A stretch of DNA of 64,000 nucleotides from an uncultured virus (IMG/VR IMGVR_UViG_3300022868_000018) (IMGVR_UViG_3300022868_000018); one strand, 5' to 3'; shown: positions 2,551 through 57,830, counted from the stretch's first letter. A program made the numbers and translations. Notes: generated from the sequence alone by a model not told the origin.

Positions 2551-4707
2551 CTATGGTGCTGTCTTAGCTGTGACAATCCCGCCGCTCACGGTGATCGTGT
2601 TGCCATCGGCGTCAACGAATGTGGTGTCGATACCTGCCACACCGTTGTCCTTGTAGCCACCGATTACATCCAGAGAACCGCCAAGGTAACTTGGCGCAGT
2701 ACCGGAATGGTAGTAACCCCAGTCCACACCACTTGTCTCGTTGAGGTAGTGCATGTAGACGGTGCCGCCTACCGTGCCATCGGCGTCCACGCGCACATAC
2801 TGCCCATAGATGCTGCCTGTGACTTCGTGAGCAGCCTCCTGGTCTACTGAGAAATACTCACCATACACATTGCCCCAGAGTTTGCCTGCGTCCATATTCG
2901 TCAGGAGATACAGTCCGCGTACGTCACGAGCGTTGCTGACATCGCCGACCTCGCCAGCGCTCATCTTTGCTTCTACATACCCGCCCTGCAAGTAGCCGAT
3001 AGTACCAGCCGCTTGATTTAGGGCAATCTGGCTATAGATGCCGCGAAAGTGGTCATCGGCGTCCGTTGCGCCCAATGTCTTCGTGACGATACTTTTGATC
3101 CCAGTAAAATCATCTGCAGTATTGAGGTTGGTATTGCTAAAGTACATGCCTTCTTCGGTCGTTGGCGCGATACCAATGCCAATATTATCAGAAACATACA
3201 GAGTACCGTTGTTGATTTCAACGTTGCCACTTTGATAGATGATGTTGTTTTCAAACTTGTCCCAATAGTTGACACTCATTGGGTATCCACGCATGATGCC
3301 GGATGAATACAAGGCATCGGCGTAGTAGAAAACATACTGGTCGGAATAGATACACATGACAGTGGCAACAGTAGCAACAGAAACAGATGATTCGTCATAC
3401 ATGCCAAAAGGACTTCCGTAGTAGTCCTTCCACAAAAGTTTGTCCGATGAAACTGCCATACCCATGCGCCACGCTATACCGTTCCAACCATGAAACAGCA
3501 TGTAATACACATCACCGATTTTGAGCAAGTCATCGCACGCTACTCTATCAGCCCATTCAATATCGCTACCCTCGAATACTGGATTCGTTCCTTCTTTAGC
3601 CCATGTGGAACCATCAGCAGATGTAGCAATACCAATTGCTCCCTGCTGGCCTGCTGTCTCTCGACCTTCATACAGCATGTACCAAGTGGCACCTTCTATC
3701 CAAACCACAGGACTGCTGACATCTTGGCTCTCCCATGTTGCACCAACTGTCGAAAGCACTATGCCATCATCAACCCACGTCACGCAGTCTGATGAGTGGT
3801 ATTTGCGAATCTCGGTACCACCACCAGCCTTGTCCTCAGCATACATGTGATACGTCCCGCTGACGTTGACCACATACGGGTCCTCCAGCGAACGCACGAT
3901 GACCTGGCCCGCCTTCGTCCAGCTTATCCCGTCGGATGAATACGCATAGCCGATGTACACAGTGTCCTGAACATAAGCCCCATTGTGACCGGAATAGAAT
4001 ATCTTGTACTCGTAGCCTGTGTCGGTGGGTTCATAAAGCACGTTGCCAATCTCGCGAATATACTCATCCCATTCTACGCCAGTACCACAGGCAATGACCG
4101 GATTGGTGCCCTCGAAGCCACCAATGTAATCAAACGCGAGGATCGTCCGGTCGGAGTAGGGGTCGCCACCCTTGTAGATGTCAGCAGCACCAATTATTCC
4201 ATCAGTCAGCGTCACATTATTGGTGTCTATCGTCCAGTCACCAGTTAAGTCACGGGTACCGTCAGCCAGCAGGTATTGCGCGTGGTCGTCTGCGCCAAGG
4301 TTGCTCAGGTCGGCATGGCTTACCGCAGCGCCATCGCCAGCAGCATCGTGGTGGTGAGCATCAATCACACCGGTTATCTGCTCGATGATATCCACGACGA
4401 TCAGCTCGTATACTTCATTCGCATCAGCGTGCCCTACCGCCGCCGTACCAGACTGCGCCCGCGTCACGGTAAAGTCATTCCCCGCAACGCCAGTCACCAG
4501 CATGATTTCCATGCCGCCGCCAGTGCCACTTCCATCATCGCGGGCCGGGTCGAAAAATGTCTGCATATCCCACACGGTCACATGGAAGGGGCCAGTCGCG
4601 GGGAAGCTCGACGCATCGGCCACGGTGATAGTACCGTCGCCGGCAAGCACCGCGCCATCAAGCGTGCTCTCTGCGCCATTCTCAAGCAGATACCAAGTAG
4701 TAGCCAC
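2551..4707 (-). CDS. Tail fibre/spike with five-bladed beta-propeller glycosidase-like domain
   Basis: Repeated blades (YKIFYSG...IGYAYSSDGISW, EDPYVV, SSPVVW...WYMLYEG, IGIATSADGSTW) as in GH32/GH43/GH130 folds; phage-type N- and C-termini. Confidence 0.75.
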   Translation of the reverse strand: MATTWYLLENGAESTLDGAVLAGDGTITVADASSFPATGPFHVTVWDMQTFFDPARDDGSGTGGGMEIMLVTGVAGNDFTVTRAQSGTAAVGHADANEVYELIVVDIIEQITGVIDAHHHDAAGDGAAVSHADLSNLGADDHAQYLLADGTRDLTGDWTIDTNNVTLTDGIIGAADIYKGGDPYSDRTILAFDYIGGFEGTNPVIACGTGVEWDEYIREIGNVLYEPTDTGYEYKIFYSGHNGAYVQDTVYIGYAYSSDGISWTKAGQVIVRSLEDPYVVNVSGTYHMYAEDKAGGGTEIRKYHSSDCVTWVDDGIVLSTVGATWESQDVSSPVVWIEGATWYMLYEGRETAGQQGAIGIATSADGSTWAKEGTNPVFEGSDIEWADRVACDDLLKIGDVYYMLFHGWNGIAWRMGMAVSSDKLLWKDYYGSPFGMYDESSVSVATVATVMCIYSDQYVFYYADALYSSGIMRGYPMSVNYWDKFENNIIYQSGNVEINNGTLYVSDNIGIGIAPTTEEGMYFSNTNLNTADDFTGIKSIVTKTLGATDADDHFRGIYSQIALNQAAGTIGYLQGGYVEAKMSAGEVGDVSNARDVRGLYLLTNMDAGKLWGNVYGEYFSVDQEAAHEVTGSIYGQYVRVDADGTVGGTVYMHYLNETSGVDWGYYHSGTAPSYLGGSLDVIGGYKDNGVAGIDTTFVDADGNTITVSGGIVTAKTAP

Positions 4708-4727
4708 GGTTCACCTCACAGGTCACA

Positions 4728-5204
4728 TCAGACATCGGTGAAGATTTCCTTGTAGGTGATAGTCAGTGTCTCATCGGTGGCCATGTTCTTGACCGCGCTC
4801 ACAGCCCGACATAGCATCGTGCCGCCAAGCGCAAGCTGATTGAACAAAGCATACTCAGTAACAGCCCGTGCACCAGTGAATGTGATGGTGCCTACACTCT
4901 GGTAGGTGTCATCGGCAACAGTGGTGGTGATACGGCTCTGCACTCCTGTTGCCCGCGTCTCCACTTCCGAACCCAATGCTGTGTCCGTCGGGTCAGCAGC
5001 TACAACACCTTCACCCACGGCAATATACTTCATGTCATCAGGCGCGGCCTCATCGCCGCTCAGTGCCCCGGCCATGAACGCAAGGCCGCTGTTCACATTC
5101 AGGTTCTCGATGATCCACTCGTCTTTCACCTGTCCATCTACGCCCCGGTGGACACAGTGGAATGCGCCCGACATGCCATATTGCTTCTCGAAGATGGTCG
5201 CCAT
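4728..5204 (-). CDS. Tail fibre collar/attachment-like protein
   Basis: NLNVNSG...YIAVGEG...AADPTDTALGSE...VTEYALFN motif common in phage fibre-base proteins. Confidence 0.65.
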   Translation of the reverse strand: MATIFEKQYGMSGAFHCVHRGVDGQVKDEWIIENLNVNSGLAFMAGALSGDEAAPDDMKYIAVGEGVVAADPTDTALGSEVETRATGVQSRITTTVADDTYQSVGTITFTGARAVTEYALFNQLALGGTMLCRAVSAVKNMATDETLTITYKEIFTDV

Positions 5205-5227
5205 AACCAACACCTGCTTTCGCGTGT

Positions 5228-5911
5228 TTAGTCTGCCTTCTCGTCGTTTACTTGATCCAACCCCCGCCTGTCGCATTCAATGCAAAGCGCACTGGGGTTG
5301 GCTGGCTCCCAATGCTCATCCTTAGTTCCCATGTAGTGTTTGCTGCGATGCCGTTTCACCTGCGCGGGATTACCGCAGACCACCGTACCCGGTGGAACAT
5401 CGCGTATCACTACAGCACTCATCCCTACTATAGCACCTTCGCCTATAGTTATGCCACCCATAATACTGGCTTTGGCTGCTATCACAACGTCGTCACCAAT
5501 CACGACGGGCTGCGGCGTGAATATCTTGCCCACCTGCGGGTATTTGTCATTGCCGAGAAAAGCTGCGGGGCCGATGAAGACGTTATCGCCGATATGCGCG
5601 GGCTCGTGTAGTTGCGCTGACGCGCCGATGCGGCTGTTGCGGCCGATGCTTACCCCCGGACCGATATATGCCTGGCTCCCAATCATCACATTGACGCCGA
5701 GTTTCGCCCCACGCCGGAGGTGAACCCAGTGCCAGATCGTGCAGGGAGAAGGAAGCTCGACATCCGCCTCGATGGTGCAGTGATTCCCAATACGGACGCC
5801 TTCGTTTAAGATGACGCCTTCCTCTATCACTGAACAGTGACCGATACAAGCATCAGGCGGGATGACGATACCATCGTGAATGACGCAGTGCTGGCCGATG
5901 TTTGCGCTCAT
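5228..5911 (-). CDS. Hexapeptide-repeat (left-handed beta-helix) sugar N/O-acyltransferase
   Basis: Many IGxxxx repeats, IGDNVFIGP, NDKYP, C-terminal VVIRDVPPGTVVCGNPA. Confidence 0.9.
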   Translation of the reverse strand: MSANIGQHCVIHDGIVIPPDACIGHCSVIEEGVILNEGVRIGNHCTIEADVELPSPCTIWHWVHLRRGAKLGVNVMIGSQAYIGPGVSIGRNSRIGASAQLHEPAHIGDNVFIGPAAFLGNDKYPQVGKIFTPQPVVIGDDVVIAAKASIMGGITIGEGAIVGMSAVVIRDVPPGTVVCGNPAQVKRHRSKHYMGTKDEHWEPANPSALCIECDRRGLDQVNDEKAD

Positions 5912-5932
5912 GGATAATGCTCCATCCTTATT

Positions 5933-6706
5933 TTAATCAGTTATCACATCGGACTTAGCACAGTTGTCGCAGGATGTGCAGAGTAGCGTCTCGCAATGCT
6001 GGGGGTCGTCGTGCAGGATACCCCAACCATCATCGCTGAGTTTGCCGAGGCAATCTATCGCAAAATCTGCGTGGCCGATGCAGCGATAGACTGCGCTATC
6101 CGGTAGCACTATTACGAAATCATGTCCACAACTACAGGAGGCGATACGGCCATTCTGCCGTGGCATCTTGTCACGGAATAGGAATGTCTCGTCGAATGTG
6201 CCCACGTAGAGCTTTGCGCCAAGTTCGGCAGTACGCTCCTTCACCCGCTCCAGTATGTCTGGCAGGTCGCGCCAGAGAGTGACGTAGGACACTTCAAGCC
6301 GGGTATGCGGCACCGTCTCTTGCAGCCACTTTATCCCCTCCCAGAAGGAGTCCGCTTCGGGATGATCGGGATGGAAGTGCAGGCTTGCCGTGGCAGACGT
6401 AAGCCGTGAATAGAGTTCCGGCTTCAGCCACTCACTCGGATGTATCCGCAGATTTGTCTCCATGCGGAAAGGCCAGTCGGTTGTCGTGAGCACTGTTGCT
6501 AATGGCCGGTAGACGCTCGGCTCGCGTCCGCCTATACCAACATGCGAAAGCGTGTGCGGACAGTCATCGAAGATACGAATCCACTCCTCCGCAGGTAGTT
6601 CGCTACCGTGTTTCGCGATAGGCAAACCGCGCCCACCGCAGTAGGCACAAACCAGATTGCAGCGGAACGTAGGCATCCAGGCTATTGTCACATTTCGCAT
6701 CGTCAT
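5933..6706 (-). CDS. Radical SAM protein with SPASM/twitch-like C-terminus
   Basis: CNLVCAYC (CX3CX2C), GGREP, ETN, C-terminal CSCG...PDSAVYRC...CxxxxCxxC. Confidence 0.9.
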   Translation of the reverse strand: MTMRNVTIAWMPTFRCNLVCAYCGGRGLPIAKHGSELPAEEWIRIFDDCPHTLSHVGIGGREPSVYRPLATVLTTTDWPFRMETNLRIHPSEWLKPELYSRLTSATASLHFHPDHPEADSFWEGIKWLQETVPHTRLEVSYVTLWRDLPDILERVKERTAELGAKLYVGTFDETFLFRDKMPRQNGRIASCSCGHDFVIVLPDSAVYRCIGHADFAIDCLGKLSDDGWGILHDDPQHCETLLCTSCDNCAKSDVITD

Positions 6707-11924: not shown

Positions 11925-13052
11925 CTACAGATAGGCGGCATCGGCAAGCTGGCCGCGTCGCGTGACGGTGGTTGACCCATCGCCAGTTGTCCCTGTCTTA
12001 TCGTAGTAGTCAGTGCTGCCAGGGTAATCAGGCCCATAGATGTTGCGCGGTGCTGTCTCATCGTACAGGAGAAGCTCAGCGCCAAGGTAGGTAGCCTTGA
12101 ATATCACCTGATTGGCGTTGGAGCCGCCTGCGATCCACTCGAAGAGGAAACCGTCTGCTTCCGTAGCCCAGAGCACGTCGGCACCCTCGAAGATTGCCAA
12201 GGCGGTGCTGACACCATCCACCTCTTCGTCTGAATGAGACCACAGGATTTGTTGGAAGTCTCCTACGTCGAAATCGTAGAAGTTGTATGTCGCCGAGACC
12301 GCATTGAGTGCCATCTCAAACTCCTCCACTGCCCGGTAATCTTCGAGGCCTTTTGTCCGCGTCCAGTCCCACTCGCTGATTGACATACCAGCTTCTCGCG
12401 AGACGTGTGGCGACGGCACCCATGAGCCGAACGCTACTTGCGTCTCGGCGGTCAAGTCCATCCGCATCCCCGTCTGTATCGAGACCCCATCTATGAAAAC
12501 TTCACAGTCAGTGCCCTTTGTCCAGAATTGTAACCTGTGCCAGTCGGTCAGGTCAACTGATACTTTCGGTTCCCCATCAATATTCAAGCCGCCCGTCCGT
12601 AGCCACACGATAAACTGGTACGTGCCATCCGCAATCGAGAGACACGCCCCCTGATTCCGGCCACTGCTGGCCGCGTCTATCCTGATCCGCACGTCGGTCA
12701 GCGTCCCCACGGTGTTGTCCAGCGTCGCGACATCATGCGTGTAGTACAGATACTCCGCAGGGGTATCGTTGGTTATCTTGAAGATGCCTCTGTCGCAAGC
12801 GTGTGTGACCGCGCCGTTGATGTGCTCAGTCCAGGCGTCGGCATCGAGGTCGGGCAGCAGTATCCCGTCGTACCATACTCCCCATTCGTTCGAGGGCGAG
12901 ATCGCGCCGCCGCCGATGATGTCATCCCGCTCATCATATCCCGCAGGCCTCGGCTCAACCCACGCCCAATACGGCGAGGCCGCAGCCGGTTCAATGCGCG
13001 GCCCGTCACCAATCGAAGGCTTCTTCTCCCTGTCTATGGGTCGCATCAGCAT
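11925..13052 (-). CDS. Tail-tip virion protein, possible lectin/ConA-like domain
   Basis: DWHRLQF...CEVFIDG motif; coupled to upstream tail gene. Confidence 0.55.
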   Translation of the reverse strand: MLMRPIDREKKPSIGDGPRIEPAAASPYWAWVEPRPAGYDERDDIIGGGAISPSNEWGVWYDGILLPDLDADAWTEHINGAVTHACDRGIFKITNDTPAEYLYYTHDVATLDNTVGTLTDVRIRIDAASSGRNQGACLSIADGTYQFIVWLRTGGLNIDGEPKVSVDLTDWHRLQFWTKGTDCEVFIDGVSIQTGMRMDLTAETQVAFGSWVPSPHVSREAGMSISEWDWTRTKGLEDYRAVEEFEMALNAVSATYNFYDFDVGDFQQILWSHSDEEVDGVSTALAIFEGADVLWATEADGFLFEWIAGGSNANQVIFKATYLGAELLLYDETAPRNIYGPDYPGSTDYYDKTGTTGDGSTTVTRRGQLADAAYL

Positions 13053-15820
13053 TACAGTGCCTTCATGTAGCGCATCTGGAGCCGCGTCTCACGTTGAGCA
13101 ATGTTGTGCATCACGCTGGTGATCCGATAGTGCCCGCCGTTTACATCTGCCCCGGCGTAAGTACCACCCGCTATCTCTGCGACGAACCCCGGCTTTAGGT
13201 TATATCTGAAGGGCATAGTGATGTCAAGGAATGTGGGCTGCGGCCCTAGTTCCTGCGCGAGTTCGATAAGGCGGGCGTTCAATTCTGCCCGCGTCTGCAG
13301 TTCGCTGTTCTCCTCGGTGTACGTCACTGGCATCCCTGTATAGCGGGCCGAAGTCGTATCAAACAGCGACTCGTCATCCTGCCAGGTACTGCGGATAACC
13401 CGGCCATCGCTGGTCTTGCCTGTCACCGCAATGCGATTGGCGTACTGCCCCTGCTGCAGGAACGCCACACGCGATACCAGAGACTTGCTGATGTAGAGGC
13501 TCTCATGGTCGGTCACATTCGCGGGCGCATCAATGATCCGCAGGTCGATGCCAGTGCCCGGATTGCGCACGAGGTCGGCCGCCAGGCATCCTGTAGAGTT
13601 CCAGCCTGCGTCCTGATGTGTCGCCCAGTCCCCTGCCGTCCGCTCTGTGCGGCAGTATTTGCAGCCGGTGCGCACCTTATTCAGGCTCCGGTCGTACCAT
13701 AGCGCCGCAGATTCACCGCCTTTGTCAGCAAGGTCGGCGATGATGTCGTTGATATTCGCACCGTAGTTGTAGCGCCACTCATCCCCTGCCAATGTCAGGC
13801 CCAGGTTCTCGATGTCGCGCCATTGTTCCCCAACGCCTACATGGTCGAGCAGGTAGTTGATGGCCGCCGCCGGGTTCCAGCCACGGAAGTTGAGTTCTGC
13901 CCCGTCCCATTTCGTCAGCGCGATAATCCCCAGCAGGTCTGTCAAGCTGAATGTGGCATTGCGGGCGTCGCGGAGGTCGGTCACGATGAAAAGCTGCCCA
14001 AAGTCTGCCGTCTCAGTAACGTCCGGGCCGCCGCTGCCATCACTGAATACCCAACCTGCGGATAGTTCCACAACGCGGCCTGTGGTGAAGTCTTCAGTGG
14101 GCACATTCCCCGCCGGGGCCGATGAGGTCGAGAGGCGATTGTCTATCGTCAGCGTATACCGTTGCGATGTTCCCGCGCCCAGTTCGTCACTCAGCGTAAG
14201 GCCAAAACGGGCCTGCGGGATCGTCGTGAATGAGGGCGCACCGTTGTCCGTGACCTCAGCACTCTGGAAGACTTCTGCGGCGGTCACAAAGGGCGTGGTG
14301 AATGTAGGCAAGTCGAGTGCGCCAAGTGCAGCAGGATAGTAGCCGCGCTTGATTTCGATTTCGTACATGAGGTAGCCGGATTCTGGTATCGCGTCCACAC
14401 AGGCAGTGGCGCAGGCTCCATCCGCCACGTTGCAGGCTTCGATGGCGTCCGGGTCAACACCAGCGGCGATGATGCAGGCCTCCCACGTTGCCACACAGCC
14501 CGCCAGACACGCGGGGTCGGCACTCCCGCTCGGCGGTATCTGCCAGTAGGAACCATCGGCTCCCATACCCGTCACGCCCGGCGGGGCGGTGCTAGGCGTA
14601 GCCCAGATATAGGAGCCGATGTTCGCCTCGTTGAAGTTGCCGATGTAGAACGGCTGCCGCCCTACCGACGTATCCAGAAAGATCAGCGGTGCCAGCCAGT
14701 AGTCGCATTGCCCATGCGAGTTCTCGATACGCATGGGGCCTGCCGGCGCAATCGGTTGGTCGCGGTTCGGAGGGACGTAGTACGCAAAGCCGTCCTCGAA
14801 GCTGCTCTCAGTGACTGCTATCGCCTTGCCGATGACGCCGATTTTGTAGGTCTTGCCCTCCTTTGCCATCCCCTGCGGGGTGACCGCCGACAGTTCGCCT
14901 TCCGTCCATTCGCGCTCTACCCATACATCCGGCCATTCATGTAGATAATCGTCAGGACGAACGGCGGTGACCGTGTTCTCGAAGAGAGTGGGTTTGCCCT
15001 TGAGCGGGATGTGCAGTTGCCAGACATAGTGCCCCTCGCTGTTGCCCCACATGATATTCGTCCAGGAGGCGTCGGCATAGTTCATGTCCTCAAGGACCTC
15101 TATCATGTTGTCATCGAGCGCCGCCCTGCGGACGCCCGCGATGAAGAACCCGTTGGGGCAGATACCCGCCGGTTCGCCCCCGCAGGCAATGACACAGGCA
15201 TCATACGCCGTATCCGCAGCGGCAATACAGACGTCCCGCGCATCCACGCAGTTGCCCTCGCATACCGGATCGCCGTCGCAGGCGAGCAGACACTCATTGT
15301 AGGTCACGTTACAGGCCGCAATCGCAGCGGCGCGAGTAGTGGCACATCCTGCCGAGCAGCCCCCGCCGGCATCCTCCCCGTAGTACGTGACTGACGAGGA
15401 CTGCGGGTCCCCCAAGCCGTCGTAGCTCAGTTTGTTGTGCATCTCCGCGAAGAGGCCATCCTCGCTTTGGACCAAATCCCACGTCTCGCTGTAGTCACCA
15501 ACCCATGCGGGGGCTGGAAGCATCGTGTAGTAGCTTTTGGCAATCGCCGCTGTTACCGGCGATATGAGGGGCCGCAGCATCACGCCCTTCAAGTCGCGTC
15601 GGTTGACGACTATCGTGGTGCTCACGGGCCGGTCGCCAAACTCAAGGTACTCGCCGCCGTCGATGAAGCGCTGGAAGAGTTGGTGCTGGCCGAAGATTTC
15701 GGCGAGGTCGTCGTAGCGGAACCAGCCCTCGTCACCGGAGGCAACGTGATAGCGCCGCTGCTTGGAATCAGCGAGCTTCACGACGGTCGTCGGCGTTTTG
15801 TACCCGTATGGTCCAGCCAT
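13052..15820 (-). CDS. Large tail-tip/baseplate hub-like protein with Cys-rich inserts
   Basis: C-terminal hub-like region (YANRIAVTG...LKPGFVAEI...YRITSVMH); position after tape measure. Confidence 0.65.
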   Translation of the reverse strand: MAGPYGYKTPTTVVKLADSKQRRYHVASGDEGWFRYDDLAEIFGQHQLFQRFIDGGEYLEFGDRPVSTTIVVNRRDLKGVMLRPLISPVTAAIAKSYYTMLPAPAWVGDYSETWDLVQSEDGLFAEMHNKLSYDGLGDPQSSSVTYYGEDAGGGCSAGCATTRAAAIAACNVTYNECLLACDGDPVCEGNCVDARDVCIAAADTAYDACVIACGGEPAGICPNGFFIAGVRRAALDDNMIEVLEDMNYADASWTNIMWGNSEGHYVWQLHIPLKGKPTLFENTVTAVRPDDYLHEWPDVWVEREWTEGELSAVTPQGMAKEGKTYKIGVIGKAIAVTESSFEDGFAYYVPPNRDQPIAPAGPMRIENSHGQCDYWLAPLIFLDTSVGRQPFYIGNFNEANIGSYIWATPSTAPPGVTGMGADGSYWQIPPSGSADPACLAGCVATWEACIIAAGVDPDAIEACNVADGACATACVDAIPESGYLMYEIEIKRGYYPAALGALDLPTFTTPFVTAAEVFQSAEVTDNGAPSFTTIPQARFGLTLSDELGAGTSQRYTLTIDNRLSTSSAPAGNVPTEDFTTGRVVELSAGWVFSDGSGGPDVTETADFGQLFIVTDLRDARNATFSLTDLLGIIALTKWDGAELNFRGWNPAAAINYLLDHVGVGEQWRDIENLGLTLAGDEWRYNYGANINDIIADLADKGGESAALWYDRSLNKVRTGCKYCRTERTAGDWATHQDAGWNSTGCLAADLVRNPGTGIDLRIIDAPANVTDHESLYISKSLVSRVAFLQQGQYANRIAVTGKTSDGRVIRSTWQDDESLFDTTSARYTGMPVTYTEENSELQTRAELNARLIELAQELGPQPTFLDITMPFRYNLKPGFVAEIAGGTYAGADVNGGHYRITSVMHNIAQRETRLQMRYMKAL

Positions 15821-15821: not shown

Positions 15822-18800
15822 TCAAGTCAATCCATGAAAGGCCTTCTGCGTCCACGTTTGTCCAGTATCGGTGCTGGTGTATTCTACTATAGCAGGTGCC
15901 GCTTCGCCAAGGCCCCAATCCGTCGTCTTGGGCACCACGACGGTGAGTTCGCGCGTCGTCGCGTTGCGGATGATCGCCGAACGGCCTTCGTCGGCAGCAC
16001 CCACAGTTTTCATGAGTCGCCAGACACCAACGATATTCGAGACGAGGTATTTGCTGTAATACCCCAGGCTATCCCAGTCATGATTCGTATCCGCAACATA
16101 GACATCGTTGCCGTCAACATGGTCAAGAATGGCTGCGTGGTAGAAATTTTCATACGCGTAAAAAATCAGTATGTCTCCAGACAGCAACAAGTCGCCCTGG
16201 TGGTATTGCGCATAGGTAGAACCTTCTGGCATATCCGATACCATTTCTGCGAATGACTTTTGCCACCAGTCATCGACGAATCTCACATCGAACTTCTCTT
16301 CCCAGAAGCGTTGAGTGAACTGGTCGCATTCTCCCGAGCAGTCCACACCCTCGTAGGTATCTATTCGCCCTTCCGCATAAACTCCTACTGGTGCCCATAT
16401 ATGCCCATCAAGCGGCACGGTGCGGGCATTCCTCATCGAGCAACGCATACTCCACGCACGGCCTGAGGCAGCCCCAATCGGATTGTCTGAGTAGCCCGTA
16501 ACCCAGAGCATCCCTGCGTCCGCAAAGATGTATGGGTAGGTCAACAACCCGAAGCGACGAATACCTTCCCAAGTTTGTCCGCTGTCGGAACTGCAATAGA
16601 CGTCGCCATGCCCATCCCTTTGCACAGCCGCCGCAAGTAGCCTTGTACTACTATCTCCAGCTATGCAAGCAGCCACATCCGCGTCCACATCTTCGTCCGC
16701 AATGACTATCGGAGAACTGATGGAAGCATGGCCTTCCGCACGACTAGACCGCAGCAGGTACTGCTTCTCATCCTTGTACGCGCAGATATAGAACCGACCC
16801 CCCACTTCGATACCATACGGTGCAGTGTAGCCTGCTTCGATGAGTTCAGCGGTTTGCCAATCGCCGTCTAACGAGAACATCTTGCGGGTTTGCACGTTGG
16901 GTTGGCCTTCGACCAGTTCCATGCGCGAGTTCGTGGTCAGGATATTCGCCCAGAGGGCATCTTCCGAATCCGGGACCGCAAACCTCTGCGACCAGCCGAC
17001 GCCACGCTGTATCTTGTGCTCGCCTATGGTATTCGGATCACTGAGGCCTACATCAGTTACCAAGATAGCGCCAGAGAAGTGCTGTGTGAGGGCGAGGTTG
17101 CCACCAAGTGCCGGGATGTGCAACCATGCCCACACCCATTGTCGCTCCCATACCCGCTCGAAGTCTGTGTTGCGCGGCGGGTAGTTCACGCGATACATGT
17201 ACTCAATGGCATCGTTGACATCGTAGTGGTGTACCACATCCGCGCCACTGCTCCAGTACCCGTGTTCATCAGCCCCTATATCGTCGTGGTACTCGTCCCA
17301 CGCAACCGCCGCTGGAGCTTTGCGGAAGATGATGCCGCAGCAGGCCGAGGTAGCGTTGGATAACCCGTGCATCCCGCCCTGAGCACACAGCACCCCGTGT
17401 GGCGTATAGCATAGCCCCGCTACCCCGCTCCACATCCAGCCCGAGAACCCGCACTGGACGCCGCCATAGTCCTGATTCTCCACCACATCCGTTGCATAAC
17501 CGATGGACAACACTGTCCCGTCGCCATCCTTGTAAATGGAGTTCCAGTTGGCAGGTGTTGCCATGTTCCAGCCTTCACCCACTGCATCCATCAGCCGTGC
17601 GTATTTCTCCAGCGAGTAGGCAACTGAGACATCCAGTATACCCGCTATCGGGTCAACTGTGTAGACTTCATTCACATCAGGGATGAGTTCTTCGAGGCCC
17701 TTCTTCCAGACATGCCGAGGCTGATAGAGTGCAGCACCACTGTCAGTCGCCCGCAACGCCAGTGTGCACCGTCCGTCAATCACGCCACGGATGCCACCCC
17801 AATCGTAAGAATGATGGCATTGGTGCATGGTGGTGGTGGACAATTCCGCTGCTGATCCAGGGGCAGCATCAGAAGGATCAAGCCGGAAGCCATTCAGCGT
17901 CCATGCTCCAGTTGCATCTGCCGCGAAGATGACTTCCACCTGCGTCACATGCTCCAGCCGTGCATAGCCAGGATACACCAAGTCATAGTACACGGTATCG
18001 CCATTGCGCTTGCCTGTGATGGTCAGCGTCAAACCAGCAGACGCTACCGTTACCTCCACATCCTTTGCAGGCCATGAATCGTAGAGGTTGTCTTCCACTG
18101 CTTCGGTGGAATAGGTTAGCTTCAGTTGCGGAAGCGTCACACCATCCCAACCTGCGGTAGGGGTCGCTACTAGTGTCGCGTATCTGTGCGTTGCCCACCA
18201 AGTGACATCCACGCCCGCGTGACCGCCACCCATGCAGTCTTCGTCGCTCCAGCCAGCAGGCCAACCACCAGAAACCGCAGTGTTGTTCTGATGGTAGATG
18301 TAACTCTCGGAAAACGCGCCACCTGCAGTCGCTGCAATCATAGCTGCGTTGCGTTCCCAGTAAGGGTCAATCAACGGGCCGCGTGTCAATGTGCCGCCAG
18401 CAGCAGGCACCGTGAAAGTCGCCGGAACCGCAGTCCCCACCGCACCATTCGTCACTGCAAAGTCGGTGCTCGTCCATGCCGATACCCGCGTTCCAGTTGT
18501 GCCCGACATATCGACATCTACTGCGTCAAAGGTCGTGGTCAAGTCGAAATACGGGCTGCTGGAGCAGTCGGTTGAATTGCACCCGCCTACATGGATGGGG
18601 ATGACTGGCACACCGCCGGGGGCAGTTATCGTGTCGGGTAGCAAGTTGGTGCGCCCACTCACTCGGTCTACCAACAGCACCTTTCCGCCACTCAGCAGAT
18701 CATAGTCATTGGCTGCGTATTCAGCCTTCTTATCCCAGACAGCATAGGGCGTCAGCCGCTGCGCGTAGGGGTCGAAGATGCTGTGCAGTTGCGCCTGCGT

Positions 18801-20237
18801 AAGGGGAGCCTCAGTCGAGTCCTGAAACTCGCCGGTGCTGATCCAGTCCGTCTCGGCCATGTCCGGCCAGCCACTCTCCCACGGAACCTTAAGCATCCCG
18901 CCAGGACGCAACTGACTACCACAATACGGGCAGGCGGCGTCCAGGGGATTCCACATGGGATCGTACTTCAGGTCTACCGCGTTCCAGAGAGGCCCCGCCC
19001 AAGCAGGATATGTGCCTGGCGGCGCTGCACAGGTAGCGTCACCCGCTACCCACAACGGCCCTTGTTGGTAGCGCCACACCGGGCAGACAGCGTAGCCATT
19101 CCAGAGCCAGTGGAGCACGTCGCCATAGAGGTCGTCGTCGGGGGCAGTGCCGCCCCAACCGCAGAGGCCGGTTTCGCGGAGGTCGAGAATGTGGGGAACA
19201 GAGTCCAATCCTACATTGCTAGTATCAGAAACACTTAGCCCGTCCACATCTGCCCAAAACTCCAGAGCGTTGCCATTGCCAATAATGGCATGTGGCCCAC
19301 CCTTGTTCAGCGGTGTATGATACTGCTCGATGGCGGTGAAGTCCCAGGGAGCTTCGCTTGAGTTGACAGTTACCTCGGCCCATTTTCTCCGCCCAGCATA
19401 CAAAGCGGCGTCGCCGTACAACCCTGGATTACATACATGTCCCACGCCAAAAATCGCGTCAGGTAGCGGTATCAATGTCAACCAATCACCACCTGGCTCA
19501 AAGAATGGGTCGCCCCCAGATGCAATATACTGTTGTGCCGCCCAAGCAGCATCAATCGTAAGCGAAACCGGACCAAATGTTATCTCACACGATGGTGGGT
19601 CAAGAACTTCCCAGCTATCGCCAAACCGTGACTCGATGGCATGTGTTGGTCCTACAGTTGAGCCACGCCAAGGTTCAACTGTGCGAGTGCGATTTATCCG
19701 GGATGACGATGACTTGATTGAGTATTCCCAGTCTATGCTTTGTGCATCCAACTCAGTCGTGCTCATATAGCCGCTATACCATGCCACATCCGATGGATAC
19801 CGTACAGCCGTTAAATGGATACTAGCTATCATTTGAACATCGTGTGCTGTGGTGAATGGAAAGGGCCAAACCAAAGCGAAAACCAATTCTATTGGCCCAT
19901 AAAAAATTCCATATGATTCCTCCATTTCCCAAGAAGCCAGCCGCTTATGCAGACCAGGAATGGTGTCCCTGAAATGCCCATTGACTTCCAGCGCGGTTGC
20001 ATTCGTGATATCTGTCTTCGCCACCGGCATACACTCCTTGGGTACCACAAAACTACACGACATCGGCTCCGGCCTGCTATCCCACTCGGCCCCGAACACT
20101 GGCCCCCTGCCCCGCACCGCACACTCCTGGTCTACTGTCTGCCGAATCTCCGGCCCCAGTGCCCACCAGGCCATCACCCCGCAGACTGCCAGCGTCACTG
20201 CTAACCCGATCGCTGCCCACCGCAACTGCTCTTTCAT
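15822..20237 (-). CDS. 1471-aa tail-associated protein with N-terminal hydrophobic helix, Asp-box repeats and an inserted CHAP-like domain
   Basis: SSDSGQTW and STDTGQTW Asp-boxes; GECDQF...YHAAIL...VADTNH CHAP-like catalytic motifs. Confidence 0.7.
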   Translation of the reverse strand: MKEQLRWAAIGLAVTLAVCGVMAWWALGPEIRQTVDQECAVRGRGPVFGAEWDSRPEPMSCSFVVPKECMPVAKTDITNATALEVNGHFRDTIPGLHKRLASWEMEESYGIFYGPIELVFALVWPFPFTTAHDVQMIASIHLTAVRYPSDVAWYSGYMSTTELDAQSIDWEYSIKSSSSRINRTRTVEPWRGSTVGPTHAIESRFGDSWEVLDPPSCEITFGPVSLTIDAAWAAQQYIASGGDPFFEPGGDWLTLIPLPDAIFGVGHVCNPGLYGDAALYAGRRKWAEVTVNSSEAPWDFTAIEQYHTPLNKGGPHAIIGNGNALEFWADVDGLSVSDTSNVGLDSVPHILDLRETGLCGWGGTAPDDDLYGDVLHWLWNGYAVCPVWRYQQGPLWVAGDATCAAPPGTYPAWAGPLWNAVDLKYDPMWNPLDAACPYCGSQLRPGGMLKVPWESGWPDMAETDWISTGEFQDSTEAPLTQAQLHSIFDPYAQRLTPYAVWDKKAEYAANDYDLLSGGKVLLVDRVSGRTNLLPDTITAPGGVPVIPIHVGGCNSTDCSSSPYFDLTTTFDAVDVDMSGTTGTRVSAWTSTDFAVTNGAVGTAVPATFTVPAAGGTLTRGPLIDPYWERNAAMIAATAGGAFSESYIYHQNNTAVSGGWPAGWSDEDCMGGGHAGVDVTWWATHRYATLVATPTAGWDGVTLPQLKLTYSTEAVEDNLYDSWPAKDVEVTVASAGLTLTITGKRNGDTVYYDLVYPGYARLEHVTQVEVIFAADATGAWTLNGFRLDPSDAAPGSAAELSTTTMHQCHHSYDWGGIRGVIDGRCTLALRATDSGAALYQPRHVWKKGLEELIPDVNEVYTVDPIAGILDVSVAYSLEKYARLMDAVGEGWNMATPANWNSIYKDGDGTVLSIGYATDVVENQDYGGVQCGFSGWMWSGVAGLCYTPHGVLCAQGGMHGLSNATSACCGIIFRKAPAAVAWDEYHDDIGADEHGYWSSGADVVHHYDVNDAIEYMYRVNYPPRNTDFERVWERQWVWAWLHIPALGGNLALTQHFSGAILVTDVGLSDPNTIGEHKIQRGVGWSQRFAVPDSEDALWANILTTNSRMELVEGQPNVQTRKMFSLDGDWQTAELIEAGYTAPYGIEVGGRFYICAYKDEKQYLLRSSRAEGHASISSPIVIADEDVDADVAACIAGDSSTRLLAAAVQRDGHGDVYCSSDSGQTWEGIRRFGLLTYPYIFADAGMLWVTGYSDNPIGAASGRAWSMRCSMRNARTVPLDGHIWAPVGVYAEGRIDTYEGVDCSGECDQFTQRFWEEKFDVRFVDDWWQKSFAEMVSDMPEGSTYAQYHQGDLLLSGDILIFYAYENFYHAAILDHVDGNDVYVADTNHDWDSLGYYSKYLVSNIVGVWRLMKTVGAADEGRSAIIRNATTRELTVVVPKTTDWGLGEAAPAIVEYTSTDTGQTWTQKAFHGLT

Positions 20238-20239
20238 CT

Positions 20240-20509
20240 CCCACGCCCCCTGCGGGTACGCAAAGACCCCGAGTGGTGCGGTTCCCGTCGCCTGCTATGA
20301 CGCGGTCGCGCTTACTCGGGGCCTATCCGGTATCATCTTTGCTTGTCACGTCATAGCAGGTATCCGGATTGTACCCGTTCAGGGCGTCGTTGTAAACCCT
20401 CACCTCCGCTGAGACTGCATTGCTCTACGCCAGAGGGGCACCTGTAGCCCGCAGGAGCCGCTTCGAGAGCGAAGTAGGGCCACAGCCCCACTCTACATCT
20501 GCGGACGCC
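20240..20509 (-). ncRNA. Candidate highly structured, pseudoknotted RNA
   Basis: Five complementary segment pairs (6-12 bp) within 20253-20377 plus further hairpins; largest ORF-free gap in the tail operon. Confidence 0.55.
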
Positions 20510-23500
20510 CTATGCTGGCGAGTAGCCTGGGGCGCGTGTCCGGTACGCATCAGCCTCGGCCTGCTTCTGCTTGTCGTAGTACGCCTGCCACTGGCTATTC
20601 ACTTCATCCCAATCCGGCCCGTTGAAGTTGATGTTGAAAGTGCCCGCCGCAGGTGCCAAGGAAGGACCGCCATCGCCATACGGAAAGTGCGGATTGCTTC
20701 TCCCACCGGGGCCTCCGCCAGGACTCGCGCCGCCACCGCCTGCACCCTCCTGCTTCTTCAGCGCATCGTCAATACTTGCGCCCGTCTGATCCCAGATGTC
20801 CTTGAAGTCCCCGACGGCATCGCGCGCGCCATTGAGGCCCGCCTTCAACGCGGCTGGCCCCTTGCCCAACGTCTTCATCGCATCCCATGTGTCGCCCAAG
20901 TCGCTCTTCATCCGCGAATTGAAATCAGACCACTTATCCATCCACGCAGTCGGTACGTCGGGTATCAAACCAAGTGCATCCAAGGCTTTGACAATCCAGA
21001 AAAGGGCAGTTGACAAGGCCAGCACCGCAGCTTCCAGTAATCCGAAAATGCCGAGCAGTACTATCAGCGGCCTTGTCAGTCGGCCCAATATCGGCGCGAG
21101 GACAGCCGCCAGGTTCAACAACCGCTCCAACGTATCCAGGAACCCGCTCACGATGTCAATGATGCTCCCGATAATCACATAGAAGTTGTCATCCAGCCAC
21201 TTCAGTATCCCCACGATCCCCGTCCCGAACTTGTCCCAGTCCTGCCCCGCGACCTTCAGCAGCATCCCAATGACCCACATCGCCTTCTTCACGATGCTGA
21301 CCACAAACGGCAGCGCCTGCATCGCCGTCTCCGCCAGCTTGAGCACGAGGCCGATGAACTCCTGAAACGCGCCGATGCCCTGCTGCTTGATGATGGCCGC
21401 TATCTGCCCCAATGCAGTCACGACCATTGGCAGCACCGTCGCCGCCAGTTGCCCCAGTATCGGTAGCAACCGCTGGATGATGCCCGGGAATTGCGGCAGC
21501 AAGCTCATCGCCACATCCACCAGATACGGCCCCCACTTCATAAATACCCCCACCAGCTTCTCAAAGAGTGGTATCACCGACGGCAGGAACCCCAGCAGCT
21601 TCAGCCCCGTCGCCAGCAGGAAGCCAAACCACGCCACCAACTGGTCCCCGTTCTTGGCAAGGAAGCTCGTCAGTATCCCGCCGAACTTGGTGAACATGCT
21701 GATCAGCAGCGGTATCACTTTCATGGCAAAGTCAAGTAGCAGCGGCCCCACTGTAGTGGCGAACCTCACCAGCATCGGGAGTAGTTGGCCGATGACCTGG
21801 GACATCACCATAGGCAGTTGCTCGATGGCGCTGATCACCGTCGGCATCAGCTTCGTGACGGCAGTGGCTATCTGGGTGATGGCCTCGGGAAGAAGCTTGA
21901 CGATTCCTTGAAGGGCATCCAGCAAGCGCGGACCAAGCGCAACTATCAACTTGTCTACGATGGCGGGAAGGCCCAGCAATGCTTCGCCGAACTTCTCGAA
22001 GAACTCTACACCACGCGCCGATTTCACGAGTTCATCAAGGCGCAAAACAACAACGCCAAGCGCGGGTGCCAGCTTGTTCCCCAACAGATCGTAGTACACT
22101 TCCTCCCAGATGGACTTCAACCGCCGCCAGGCACCATCAAGGGTGCGCAACTGTTCTACCTGCACTCGGACCGCAATGCCTGTTGCACTAACGGCATCGC
22201 CAACACCGGCTGCATCTTTACCCATCGTGCGCCACGCAGAACCAAGGCCACCAGCAGCCTTATTGGCTCCGGTAAGCATGTCAACGGCTTGCTGCGTAAT
22301 CGCAGTGAAGTCGGTCATACCATCATTGGTACTGGTTACCTGCTTAGACATCTTTTCGAGGCTATCAACGCCCTCCATCAACAACCCCGCAAGACCACGA
22401 CCTGCACGCATAGTCTCTGCTGACATAAGGGTTTGCGCGAGGTAGCCCATGCCTTCATCGTCGCCAAAAGCTGCTGTCAGCCTCCCGCCAAGGCCCTCCA
22501 ATTCCTTCAACGCGGGTATCATTCCCTTGGTGATGATGTTGTTGGCGAGCCTATCCACATCAACGCCGAGCTTGCCGAAAACCTCGCGAGCCTTATCGGT
22601 CGGCGCGATCAAAGACTTCAGCACGTTCTGAAGTTCCATGCCTGCGCGGGAACCCTCACGCCCCTGTCTTTCCAGCCCCATAATCATCGCAAGGGTATCT
22701 TCGAGGGAAATGCCGAGCATAGACGCGCTCGAACCTGCATACTTTAGAGCGTCCCCGATGTCCTTGATCAAGCCGGGGGCACCAAAAGTGGCAGCAACCA
22801 GCGTGTCGGTAACGCGGGCTGCTTGATCTGCGCCGATGGCATATTGGTTCATCGTAGCGTTGAGGGTCTTGGTGGTCAAGTGCATATTCTCAAGCGTAGC
22901 TTCGGCAAGCGCTACCGCAGGCGCAAGCATATTGAAGGCTTCTGCGACAGTCCGACCTGCACGCACCATCTGCCCAAACGCCTCAGCCGCCTCCCAGGCC
23001 ATCGTGCCTACTGTCGTAGTGACATCTTTAGCGGCCTGCATTACACGCTTCCGCATGTCATCGGCTGCATCACCAAAGAGGCCTGTTGCAGCTACGGCAT
23101 TAGCGATAGCCTGCTCAAACTTGGAAAACATGCCGACTGAAGTCTTGAGGAAACTAACAATATGCTGTGCCACGGTCTTCCCAACATCCACGACCGCCTG
23201 AGAGAACCGCTTCAACGCCTCCACGCTCATCTGAATCGCAGTCTTGGCGAGGTCGATGAACGCAGTGGCCGCCTTCTTCGCGCCCTCGTACAACTGCTGC
23301 AGCGCCCACAGCCCCGCCTTACCCAACTGCTTCAGGATGAACAGCGCCAGCTTCGGCTGCACATACAGCACTGCAAACTTCGCCGCCACCGCCCCAATCG
23401 CGACAGCCAACAGCGGAAAATTCTTGGCAGCATTCGCGAGCAAAGGCCCCAACTGTGTGAAAAATGCAAGGATACGCGCCGTTACCGCCGTCCCAAATGT

Positions 23501-25101: not shown

Positions 25102-26043
25102 CTACACAGCGACTTCTTGGATTTCGCAGGCCTCCTGTGTCCCGTCCAGAGACTCCAACGCCTGGAAGCTTACGCTCCCCCGTAGGATACCACTGTCCGG
25201 CGCGTTCAGCGGATTCTCCGTATAGACGATACGCTCCATATTGAAGGCGCACGCTGCTATACCAGCCCGCGTCATGGTCAGCTTGTACGCGCACTCCTCA
25301 CCGCCCATGAACGCATCATAGAGGTCGCTGTTGGCGGAGATGCGGTCGAAGCTACCCGTCCACTGTGCCTTTGCTGCCGCGGGCAGGTCGTATGGATAGG
25401 TCGTGCCGTTGATGGTCCCCATATCACCGGGGGCCTCGTTCATGTTGCTGAACTCAAGGGAATGGTTCCGCGTGATGTTACTCGCGGCCAGGACTGCGCC
25501 GGGAATCCCGTAAGTGCCGCCCTCGGCAGTCTGCAGCCCCGCCTCACTGTAGCGATATGGCCGCACGGTGAACAATGACTCATCCCCGTCCACGGAAGCC
25601 GCCGTCGGCTCCTTGATACCCGCGATGTTCAGGTCAAGCGAGACATAGTTGCTGCCGTAATCCACAGCAACTGTCCCGCCCATGACCTTGCAGTTCAGGT
25701 ACGTCTCCTTCGTGTGGCCGAGGTCGCGAGTGATCGTCGCCCAGCGGCTCTCGTGGTAGTCGCCGGTGCGGCCCCATATCCAGGTGTTGAAGTCGCTCAC
25801 CGCGACATAGCCCGGAATGCAAGGAATCCGCAGCGTCCCCTCCATGTACTCGCCGCCGGTCTCGTAGTGCGTCAACCCGTAGTGACCGCCGCTGTACTGG
25901 AAGAACGTGTAATTCTTGTTGTTCGTCAGGTCCGTGCCCTCAGGCAGCGGCAGCTTGTACGCGGTGCCATCGTCTGTGTCCTTCACGCTTTGCAGCGCCA
26001 CGGTGACGTTACAATACTTGTGCGGAATGAATGCGTCCGCCAT
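25102..26043 (-). CDS. Major tail tube protein
   Basis: 313-aa beta-rich protein in the canonical position; no sheath gene found. Confidence 0.7.
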   Translation of the reverse strand: MADAFIPHKYCNVTVALQSVKDTDDGTAYKLPLPEGTDLTNNKNYTFFQYSGGHYGLTHYETGGEYMEGTLRIPCIPGYVAVSDFNTWIWGRTGDYHESRWATITRDLGHTKETYLNCKVMGGTVAVDYGSNYVSLDLNIAGIKEPTAASVDGDESLFTVRPYRYSEAGLQTAEGGTYGIPGAVLAASNITRNHSLEFSNMNEAPGDMGTINGTTYPYDLPAAAKAQWTGSFDRISANSDLYDAFMGGEECAYKLTMTRAGIAACAFNMERIVYTENPLNAPDSGILRGSVSFQALESLDGTQEACEIQEVAV

Positions 26044-32620: not shown

Positions 32621-32644
32621 CTCAGCCAACACCTCTCACGCATA

Positions 32645-32706
32645 CAAAAAACCCGCCAATGCTCTGTCCCAATCCCTTGCGGGAGGGGGGCAAAACACTG
32701 CCGGGC
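32645..32706 (-). terminator. Long hairpin with GCAA tetraloop and U6 tract (attenuator before head genes)
   Basis: GCCCGGCAGTGTTTTG...TCCC-GCAA-GGGA...CAGAGCATTGGCGGGT-TTTTT; G-U pairs favour the minus strand. Confidence 0.7.
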
Positions 32707-32779
32707 TTTATGCGCTATTCAAGCAGTTGTTATTCAGTTGTCGTTACTGATTTGCCTTTAGGAGGCTATACGACTAAGA

Positions 32780-32808
32780 ACAATATACCACTCTGTATCT
32801 AATGTCAA
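32780..32808 (-). promoter_or_regulatory. sigma70-type promoter for head operon
   Basis: TTGACA-17-TATTGT (alternative -10: TGgTATATT). Confidence 0.65.
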
Positions 32809-32834
32809 GCATAATTTCTGAGGCGCAGGCCGAA

Positions 32835-33059
32835 TCACCCGATTGCGGTAACGTTATAGGAGTGGCAGCGCGGGCACAAAAGCCTGATCCTGACTGGCCC
32901 TGTGCAAGCAAGTCGGCAAATAGTACGCGGCTTGGAAAGGGGAGAACCAAACTTTCGCGCAGCACATTGCGGATTGCCGCACCGCACCCGCCACTCACCG
33001 GGACACACCTCATCGACCTGCGCCTGTATCGCTGTATCTGTTGCCGCAGTCTGCGCCAT
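32835..33059 (-). CDS. Com-like zinc-finger protein
   Basis: RVRCGNPQC...IRLLCPRCHSYN resembles Mu Com (RCxxC...IEIRCPRC). Confidence 0.6.
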   Translation of the reverse strand: MAQTAATDTAIQAQVDEVCPGEWRVRCGNPQCAARKFGSPLSKPRTICRLACTGPVRIRLLCPRCHSYNVTAIG

Positions 33060-33181
33060 CAGGCATCGTCCTTATCGCTGCCCTCGAGCCAGCCCAGCTT
33101 CTGGAGGACAAAGAATAAAATGAATAGCCCAACTACGCCGGAAATCACACCAATCCAGAACATCGAAATCTCGAATACCAT
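33059..33181 (-). CDS. 40-aa single-TM protein (not in ORF track)
   Basis: MVFEISMFWIGVISGVVGLFILFFVLQKLGWLEGSDKDDA; TGATG overlap with next gene. Confidence 0.55.
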   Translation of the reverse strand: MVFEISMFWIGVISGVVGLFILFFVLQKLGWLEGSDKDDA

Positions 33182-33183
33182 GC

Positions 33184-38674: not shown

Positions 38675-38840
38675 ATTCAGTCGTCTCCCATCTCCTACTA
38701 TGACCCCATTATAGTGGATCACATTAGGGTTGTCAAGTGCTATAATCAAATAGGTTCCCCGCTGCAGTTGGTGTAGGTGATATGGGCCTCCACGGCGAAT
38801 GGGATACAGCCAGCCAACATCAGCACCAGGGAGGCCCACT

Positions 38841-39164
38841 ATGTTCAAAAGCAAGTTCATCCAAGCCATTCACGAGAAGATAAAACTCAGGATCACATTC
38901 TTCTCAAGCAAAGACGGCCAATACATCACCCGTGTATGCGCGCCAATGGACTATGCCCCAGGCCGCAACATACACGACCGCGACAAACGCTATTGGGTGT
39001 GGGATTATGACAGCGATACAGGTAGGCATACATTGCCCCTCAAAGCAGAACGGATCAAAACAATGGTCGTGCTTGAGGATCATTTCGATCCCGACGAGTT
39101 CGTCACGTGGTCAACCCACACCAAGCCCTGGGCTGTTAGCCGAGACTGGGGACACCATAGTTGA
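38841..39164 (+). CDS. WYL-like small protein
   Basis: AIHEKIKLRITF...TRVCAP...YWVWD...ERI pattern; AGGGAGG SD. Confidence 0.55.
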   Translation: MFKSKFIQAIHEKIKLRITFFSSKDGQYITRVCAPMDYAPGRNIHDRDKRYWVWDYDSDTGRHTLPLKAERIKTMVVLEDHFDPDEFVTWSTHTKPWAVSRDWGHHS

Positions 39165-57526: not shown

Positions 57527-57830
57527 GGTTGCGGCCCCTTTCGTATCGTACGCAACCATTGTAGCATGTTCCACTGGTTGTGTCAAGTATATATTTCCCT
57601 TCCATTTCCGCTGCTTCCGCTGCTTCCGCTGCTCTCGCCACACATTCCGGGCAGAAATCGTCCACGTCGGCGTGACAACTTTCCACCCAGAGTTCCGACC
57701 GCCAACCATGCTGCTCCAGCCACGCATCAATCGCATCGTTGTCCCGGACGGTCTCCGGCATCTCCACTTCCCGCCCGCACTCGTCGCAGGTGACGCGCAA
57801 GGCACCGTCATGCGTCGGGGTTACGGTCAT
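57513..57830 (-). CDS. Zinc-finger protein whose C-terminus is replaced by IS sequence
   Basis: CDEC...GW...DFCPEC; reads through the TSD into the TIR. Confidence 0.6.
   Translation of the reverse strand: MTVTPTHDGALRVTCDECGREVEMPETVRDNDAIDAWLEQHGWRSELWVESCHADVDDFCPECVARAAEAAEAAEMEGKYILDTTSGTCYNGCVRYERGRNHEIR

Follow-up and report, generated by a model that had tools for sequence, protein, structure and literature searches.

The stretch of DNA analysed here (called the window; 64,000 nucleotides, IMG/VR IMGVR_UViG_3300022868_000018) comes from a tailed-phage genome found in salt-lake metagenome runs (24 DNA runs listed and no RNA run) and has a G+C content of approximately 59%. The structural genes lie on the minus strand, and neighbouring genes mostly abut. 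Pfam matches in the window comprise a Mu-type portal, a tail tube protein, an integrase, ParB, methyltransferases and two IS1595-type transposases. The portal and an adjacent 502-aa protein show at most 27% identity to any cultured phage, and the hosts of the listed matches are bacteria. The tblastn matches of the 502-aa protein fall under annotated large terminase genes.

The subject of this analysis is a gap between the tape measure gene and the gene of a 1471-aa protein (Table 1). The preliminary description of this DNA had reported approximately 270 nt of non-coding sequence; the gap measures 272 nt and holds short, unconserved ORFs only. No Pfam or PHROG family matches the 1471-aa protein, and its assignment as a tail protein is presumed, from position only. 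Seven database proteins, including itself, fall in its family (six relatives), and the hydrophobic N-terminus is kept in all seven aligned sequences. The C-terminal 30% of the protein is missing in most relatives. The next gene (13052–15820) encodes a 922-aa protein that is likewise without a Pfam or PHROG family. The genes at 2551–6706, downstream of the tail genes, give glycoside-hydrolase-130-like and hexapeptide acyltransferase matches and weak matches to radical-SAM proteins; cargo of this kind is unusual in a tail module.

Another large gap without coding sequence (32633–33183, approximately 550 nt) separates the portal gene from the structural gene that follows. On its minus strand, at 32808, there is a promoter-like TTGACA-17-TATTGT, and some of the lowest folding energies of 160-nt windows occur nearby. 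The two IS1595-type transposase genes occupy 37736–38869 and 56615–57811. A perfect 12/12 sigma-70 consensus at 38736 (minus strand) faces a 10/12 site at 38718 (plus strand). Beside one IS1595 copy, at 55081–56618, a gene for a MvaI/BcnI-family restriction endonuclease adjoins an N6/N4 DNA methylase gene, and the two appear to be a restriction-modification pair carried by the phage.

Table 1. Features at the junction between the tape measure gene and the 1471-aa gene. Positions are counted from the first letter of the window.
Feature	Position	Strand	Description
Tape measure protein gene, 1055 aa	20510–23677	minus	matches 19 PHROG tape measure families, best E 3e-36; upstream neighbour of the gap
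Gap, 272 nt	20238–20509	minus	between the tape measure gene and the 1471-aa gene
Variable spacer	20398–20509	minus	100% identical in L001; missing or replaced in X8 contigs
Segment X, 122 nt, window-specific	20275–20396	minus	missing in sibling L001
Sigma-70-like promoter (putative)	20368–20396	minus	-35 TTTACA 20396–20391, 17-nt spacer, -10 TACAAT 20373–20368; 10/12 matches
Outer helix, 5' arm GACGCCCUGA	20379–20388	minus	pairs with 20243–20252; duplex -12.8 kcal/mol; inside the promoter spacer
P1, 5' arm CGGGUAC	20371–20377	minus	7 bp with 20253–20259; duplex -10.6 kcal/mol; overlaps the -10 box
P2 hairpin	20325–20369	minus	AUCCGG 20369–64 with CCGGAU 20330–25 (6 bp); loop holds the 5' arms of P3 (20360–20349) and P4 (20342–20336)
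P3	20291–20360	minus	12 perfect bp, 20360–49 with 20302–291; duplex -24.3 kcal/mol
P4	20260–66/20336–42	minus	7 bp
P5	20267–74/20314–21	minus	8 bp; 11 bp with G-U extension
Continuous 3' strand	20229–20274	minus	3' arms of P5 (20274–67), P4 (20266–60), P1 (20259–53) and outer helix (20252–43); runs on to Shine-Dalgarno, GGGAG and start codon 20237–35
1471-aa gene, presumed tail protein	15822–20237	minus	hydrophobic N-terminus; downstream of the leader

All five complementary pairings first described at this locus (P1–P5) are present, and we identified a sixth, outer perfect helix (20387–82/20248–43) in addition. Six non-overlapping perfect helices of at least 6 bp give a total of 46 bp within 20238–20400 (163 nt). 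None of 1000 dinucleotide shuffles of this stretch, the control suggested in the preliminary description, reached that total (mean 11.1 bp, maximum 33), and a 12-bp helix such as P3 appeared in one shuffle of the 1000. When the 64 kb were scanned in 163-nt windows (2554 in all), the stretch ranked first. Second, with 42 bp, is the stretch at 38401, in the part of an IS1595 transposase gene that encodes the zinc ribbon; coding DNA can thus approach this degree of self-complementarity. The helices are genuine and lie far beyond chance. Approximately 1.7 helices of at least 6 bp are expected by chance in such a stretch, and one or two of the short helices may therefore be accidental. P3 grows to 14 bp once a U-G and a G-C pair are added. 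The six helices have no nucleotide in common, which makes them compatible in sequence, and the partner order of P2 and P3 is permuted, so that one simple inverted duplication cannot give both. The upstream spacer (20398–20509) had been credited with further hairpins; these did not hold up, as its helix content is ordinary and is equalled by 795 of 1000 shuffles. The competing pairing between the spacer and the ribosome-binding region (originally 20249–56/20448–55) is present and extends to 20244–56/20448–60.

The nested minimum free energy of 20226–20400 is -72.3 kcal/mol (z -4.43; none of 200 shuffles equalled it), and for the whole 272-nt gap z is only -2.38. The minimum-energy nested fold is a three-way junction of the outer stem, P1, P2 and P5. 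When transcripts starting at 20359–20363 were folded, P3 formed a hairpin at the extreme 5' end and was the dominant helix only there. P4 fits neither of these nested folds (read-through or promoter-started). Since the nested fold and the alternative fold between them account for helices that cross each other, the apparently simultaneous helices may be two superimposed, transcript-specific folds. The claim that G-U pairs extend the helices in the minus-strand RNA only stood in part: P3 (14 bp) and P5 (11 bp) do extend in the minus sense, but the plus strand as a whole folds equally well (-72.0 kcal/mol, z -3.67; seven G-U pairs in the plus strand versus four in the minus strand), and folding cannot tell the strand. 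A sliding scan of minimum free energies across the sequence (160-nt windows, step 80) did not rank the element because no scan window spans the whole of it. Comparable nested energies are found in coding windows, such as -73.5 at 25560–25719, so the nested energy alone is not distinctive here.

The left part of the folded region carries a sigma-70-like site (Table 1). TTTACA-17-TACAAT is the single scanner match in 19900–20900 (one found versus 0.2 expected per kb), and its -10 box ends 130 nt before the start codon of the 1471-aa gene. Promoter-like sites with at least 10/12 matches number nine on the coding (minus) strand of the window versus 1.7 ± 1.35 in shuffles, and one of them is a 12/12 match; the phage clearly uses sigma-70-type promoters of this kind. 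The motif GGTAYAAT is not enriched (4 versus 1.48 expected, with as many in 6 of 100 shuffles), nor is TAYAAT (19 versus 21). The promoter at the gap is putative and rests on its match to the consensus; judged from the sequence, transcription would start near 20361 (A 20361, 7 nt after the -10 box). In phage SPP1, the longest intergenic regions are reported to carry transcription signals (PMC6316719). The first base of the promoter-like site coincides with the left edge of the window-specific segment X in three contexts, with the break at 20397 in the sibling contig L001 and at 20398 and 20399 in two X8 contigs. Neither the promoter-like site nor a mosaic or insertion-sequence breakpoint at the left edge figured in the preliminary description, and its account of the element is incomplete to that extent.

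The likely Shine-Dalgarno sequence of the 1471-aa gene is AGGGGG at 20251–20246, 8 nt before the start codon. The assignment follows the usual A(A/G)GGGG of this phage with a spacing of 6–9 nt, and the sibling has GGAGG at the same place. AGGGGG is contained in the 3' arm of the outer helix (20252–43), and the 5' arm (20388–79) is located in the promoter spacer, upstream of the inferred internal start. The ribosome-binding site has a predicted mean pairing probability of 0.73 in the promoter-started RNA versus 0.54 in the read-through RNA. It is thus not freer in the promoter-started RNA under the nested model, which cannot combine P4 and P5 with P3.

The sibling phage, represented by the IMG/VR contig L001, is 99.785% identical to the window over 9281 nt up to 20397 and then diverges. 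In place of 20275–20396 it has 1478 nt with a gene for a 406-aa solo TnpB, in which the domains HTH_OrfB_IS605, OrfB_IS605 and a Cas12f1-like TNB were found. The element is IS1341-like (L001:9282–10733), carries a TTGACT-17-TAGAAT box of its own and separates the tape measure gene from the gene that follows. Its 3' end gives a RAGATH-18 match below threshold (E 0.0078), and X gives none. After the insert, a 48-nt block (window 20274–20229) is common to both phages, with 85.7% identity by blastn over a 35-nt core, and this is the only common part to the right of the breakpoint. This block comprises the continuous 3' strand, on which P5, P4, P1 and the outer helix have their 3' arms, together with GGGAG and ATGAAAGAG. 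Past the block, the only resemblance between the proteins of L001 and the window is in the hydrophobic N-terminus, and no alignment is possible elsewhere. Run X3 contains both forms, that of the window at a depth of 49.5 and that with TnpB at 9.1, and its contigs break at 20397. A derivation of X from the TnpB element was considered and rejected; the local alignment score of 16 is not significant against 12.8 ± 1.7 in shuffles (maximum 19).

From a comparison with a related TnpB element (L013/L014, 83% protein identity), the insertion sequence ends on the right near L001 10733, so that approximately 66 nt before the sibling start codon are native leader. In the fold of this leader, CAGGU-GCAA / UUGC-GU-ACCUG, P1 and P4 have short counterparts, but the fold is no better than that of shuffles (z -0.52, 54 of 200). 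A G-C pair of P1 in the window is A-U in the sibling leader (CAGGU/ACCUG). The 5' arms align only loosely, and this double change is weak evidence of one compensatory change.

Variant contigs were taken from four runs, and the X8 variants were seen as fragments. The first X8 contig keeps 20309–20399 with 2 differences in 91 nt of X, and the next 162 nt are replaced by unlike sequence. The end of its tape measure gene has 16 differences in 82 nt, versus the 2 in 91 of X (Fisher p 0.0002). In the second contig the 112-nt spacer is skipped: the tape measure stop is followed by six other letters, by 20398–20370 and then by divergence. The spacer would therefore appear to be dispensable. The first 29 nt of X are kept in this contig and the -10 box is not; it may represent a second insertion allele. 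It is the most abundant X8 variant, and its unlike sequence contains AGATGG...GATAAC, which resembles the start of the sibling TnpB element (30 letters visible). A third contig has 8 listed differences in 20188–20232 (8/45) and none in 20233–20260 (0/28; p 0.02). In a fourth, three changes fall in the 3' strand: the loss of one bulged G, a base insertion where P4 meets P1, and a change of the G-C pair that closes P4 to G-U in the minus sense. X8 variants carry changes at 20250, 20259, 20260, 20307 and 20308, and the runs X9 and X15–X22 share part of the stretch. Taken together, the variant contigs indicate that X is a discrete module with a fixed left edge that is better conserved than the adjoining coding DNA. 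Selection and recent exchange by recombination would both give this pattern of conservation.

An alignment of the downstream protein led to five metagenome loci, four of them with upstream sequence (L007, L008, L011 and L010); searches with the protein or its alignment found no related loci in the viral or genome contig collections. X is absent from all four of these distant relatives, in which the gap before the homologous gene measures 30–85 nt. In L011 the order of tape measure gene, gap and gene is kept, with a gap of approximately 75 nt. It contains GTGACG-17-TATAAT (10/12) and a hairpin of 13 bp. The 3' arm of this hairpin continues into GAGAGGAG and ends in the GAGAG of the Shine-Dalgarno sequence; L010 is the same sequence as L011. 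In L007 the box GGGGTATAAT sits in the loop of a 10-bp hairpin with ACAGGAGGAG as its 3' arm (z -2.62), and the promoter scanner does not call the site because its -35 is poor. L008 has no such promoter/hairpin design. The GGGGTATAAT box at L007:740–790, L011:3934–3990 and L010:1–46 lies 22–23 nt before the start codon, in the hairpin loop. The sequences of these three stems differ and their complementarity is kept, with the 3' arm being the Shine-Dalgarno sequence. What recurs is therefore a -10-like box in or beside a hairpin over the ribosome-binding site, and the elaborate version is found only in the lineage of the window. Homologues, to which the preliminary description had looked for covariation, gave a divided answer: the element is absent from the four distant relatives, and the single P1 double change against the sibling leader comes from loosely aligned 5' arms.

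Searches for further copies of X returned little. No blastn match (distant mode) to 20100–20650 was found in cultured phages, and exact 21–23-mers of X occur in neither the viral nor the genome contigs. A 23-mer of the diverged X8 variant is likewise absent from the viral contigs. A comparison of X with three whole viral records gave only the known 3' block in the sibling, and there is no second copy within the window. The pattern CTTTGCGTACCYGYAGGG occurs at five loci in the viral contigs; one is the sibling contig and four are unrelated AT-rich coding DNA.

The reading that we favour, tentatively and with somewhat less than even confidence, is that of an internal promoter followed by an elaborated cis-acting leader of the next tail gene, confined to this lineage. 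The 272-nt gap would serve to control the gene downstream of it, and the right-hand 160 nt of the gap (20238–20397) would form one module that moves together with the 1471-aa gene and consists of a sigma-70-type promoter, a folded leader of approximately 124 nt and the ribosome-binding site. With a start at 20361, the 5' arms of the outer helix, P1 and P2 would fall in the untranscribed promoter spacer and -10 region. A read-through mRNA from the tape measure operon would carry this promoter DNA as RNA, and its promoter spacer and -10 region could pair with the strand before the start codon, including the likely Shine-Dalgarno sequence. In such an RNA, the outer/P1 pairing would close the three-way junction with P2 and P5 and place the Shine-Dalgarno sequence in a helix. 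This basal stem, between promoter spacer and ribosome-binding site, would form in read-through transcripts only. The promoter-started mRNA would be without the 5' arms of the outer helix and P1, and so without the junction; it would begin with P3 as a 14-bp 5'-terminal hairpin 1 nt after the start. A 5'-terminal hairpin is a shape known to protect mRNAs. P4 may be a remnant of an ancestral basal stem. The basal stem (P1 and P4) would be the older part because the sibling lineage has a short version of it, and P2, P3 and P5 would be additions in this lineage. We infer both which helices form and any effect on translation or stability.

Several observations stand against this reading. L008 is without the design, and the -10 box is not kept in one X8 variant. 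The ribosome-binding site is not predicted to be freer in the promoter-started RNA, and P4 has a place in neither fold. The plus strand folds equally well, so strand, and RNA or DNA, are not told apart.

The last point would also suit functionless passenger DNA, which might be the relic of a small palindromic mobile element or the outcome of repeated template-switch (foldback) events at an insertion-tolerant junction. The junction is an insertion hot spot, with a TnpB element at the same base in the sibling and a variable spacer; the outer arms resemble terminal inverted repeats (17 nt, 76%), and the relatives manage with gaps of 30–85 nt. We nevertheless consider this origin unlikely. No second copy was found in the window, the viral contigs, the genome contigs or the sibling records, and no target-site duplication was seen on reading the sequence. 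X is unlike the TnpB element and is better conserved than its coding flanks, and the 3' arms belong to the conserved 5' UTR of the gene. It is also possible to dispense with the promoter and to regard the gap as an element of the polycistronic message: an RNase III-type processing site, a stabiliser of the 3' end of the tape measure message, or a translation brake on the next gene. Intergenic stems serve as RNase III sites in phage T7. Approximately 31 nt of one strand form a quasi-continuous stack (outer helix, P1, P4 and P5) that ends 8 nt before the start codon, the read-through fold has the z of -4.43, and a hairpin at the ribosome-binding site is found in the relatives and the sibling too. 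However, the promoter-like left edge and the recurring TATAAT box of the relatives are left unexplained and P3 is given no role, and we regard a purely polycistronic element as quite unlikely.

The preliminary description had proposed a ribozyme, a switch or an autonomous non-coding RNA, a proposal that found no support: the element is known from one lineage, has no other copy in the collections and folds equally on both strands. In its broadest form this would be a single compact multi-pseudoknotted RNA with all helices formed at once, acting as a new ribozyme, a ligand-sensing switch or an element that modifies RNA polymerase, which is improbable. A more specific form is just as improbable; here P1, P4 and P5 would be stacked on the 22-nt strand, and P2 and P3 would tie a 28-nt bulge to the apical loop in a compact 160-nt fold. 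This would make it a new class of cis-acting phage RNA, for example a polymerase-modifying antiterminator, a sensor or a self-processing element, passed from phage to phage along with the tail gene under its control. That the six helices do not overlap, that the permuted partner order of P2 and P3 argues against one inverted duplication, that Rfam gives no match and that X is better conserved than its flanks all speak for a compact RNA. Yet the element occurs in one lineage only and is missing from the four distant relatives and the sibling phage, P2, P3 and P5 show no covariation, and there is no strand asymmetry. Three mutually crossing helices with linkers of 3–6 nt would probably be sterically demanding, and the nested and alternative folds explain the same helices. 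The case for a new ribozyme or switch is weak. Alternatively, a regulatory protein could bind the palindromes as DNA, for example ATCCGGAT at the putative start and its near-repeat 36 nt downstream. The palindromic ATCCGGAT overlaps the promoter-like site from +1 to -7, and at 20325–20333 it occurs again as ACCGGAT. This explanation appears very improbable to us, as it does not account for 12-bp arms 46 nt apart or for the 31-nt complementarity to the ribosome-binding region, and no candidate binding protein was identified. A small protein encoded in the gap is barely credible. A 46-aa ORF (20351–20491, minus strand) and a 150-aa ORF (19960–20412, plus strand) do exist, and a further short ORF of 41 aa at 20425–20550 is unconserved, but no Pfam or PHROG family matches at E <= 0.1. 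The sibling breakpoint interrupts the 46-aa ORF, whose first part is also lost from the spacer-less X8 variant; the plus-strand ORF is antisense to the start of the tail gene and is destroyed in the sibling.

If the promoter-and-leader reading is true, a very large tail gene would be insulated from read-through translation and driven by its own promoter, and a fold-back design otherwise known from insertion sequences would be kept in three unalignable lineages. This would bear on how the ratio of tail proteins is set and on the sites at which phage modules recombine. The junction is a natural experiment, with sibling phages in the same samples carrying either the leader or a TnpB element at the same base. 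The value of the analysis lies mainly in turning a striking structure into an ordinary, testable hypothesis.

The Rfam covariance-model search gave no match at the gathering score in the whole window, which agrees with the original view that the RNA is undescribed. With Rfam 15 at E <= 10 on 19900–20900, only sR53 was returned (E 6.2), at 20851–20884 and outside the gap, and ARAGORN found no tRNA or tmRNA. In the literature, a search on tape measure and intergenic RNA structure found no such element, and nothing relevant came up under 'fold-back inhibition'. A miniature or palindromic mobile element (MITE, IS200/IS605-derived) was rejected as a match: there is a single copy in the window, there are no k-mer copies in the collections, and the sequence is unlike the sibling TnpB element. 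Omega RNAs, the guide RNAs of TnpB, are multi-helix, pseudoknotted molecules, and in the sibling this junction is the site of a solo TnpB element; however, X is dissimilar to that element and the window has no tnpB gene, which sets it apart from omega RNAs and IS200/IS605 ends.

The put antitermination RNA of HK022 and the RNase III sites of phage T7 are cis-acting structured RNAs located just downstream of a promoter or between phage genes. The element in the window has no sequence or Rfam match to them, and its architecture differs. The leader of ompA is the example of a 5'-terminal stabilising hairpin on a bacterial mRNA; P3 is alike in being a 14-bp stem 1 nt after the putative +1. The leaders of L007 and L011/L010 stand in the same position before the same gene, with a -10-like box (GGGGTATAAT versus CGGGTACAAT in the window) and a 3' arm at the Shine-Dalgarno sequence. 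They consist of one hairpin in 60–85 nt, in contrast to 272 nt with six helices in the window, and the stems cannot be aligned. In the transposase genes of IS10 and IS50, fold-back inhibition protects from outside transcription, as is known from the Tn10 literature: the 5' arm of the stem lies upstream of the element's own transcription start and the 3' arm covers the ribosome-binding site, so that the stem forms in read-through transcripts only. Here the gene is a structural gene in the late operon of a phage, the stem is interrupted by approximately 100 nt of extra helices, and the nested prediction gives no freer ribosome-binding site in the short transcript, but the layout of the sequence in the window is the same.
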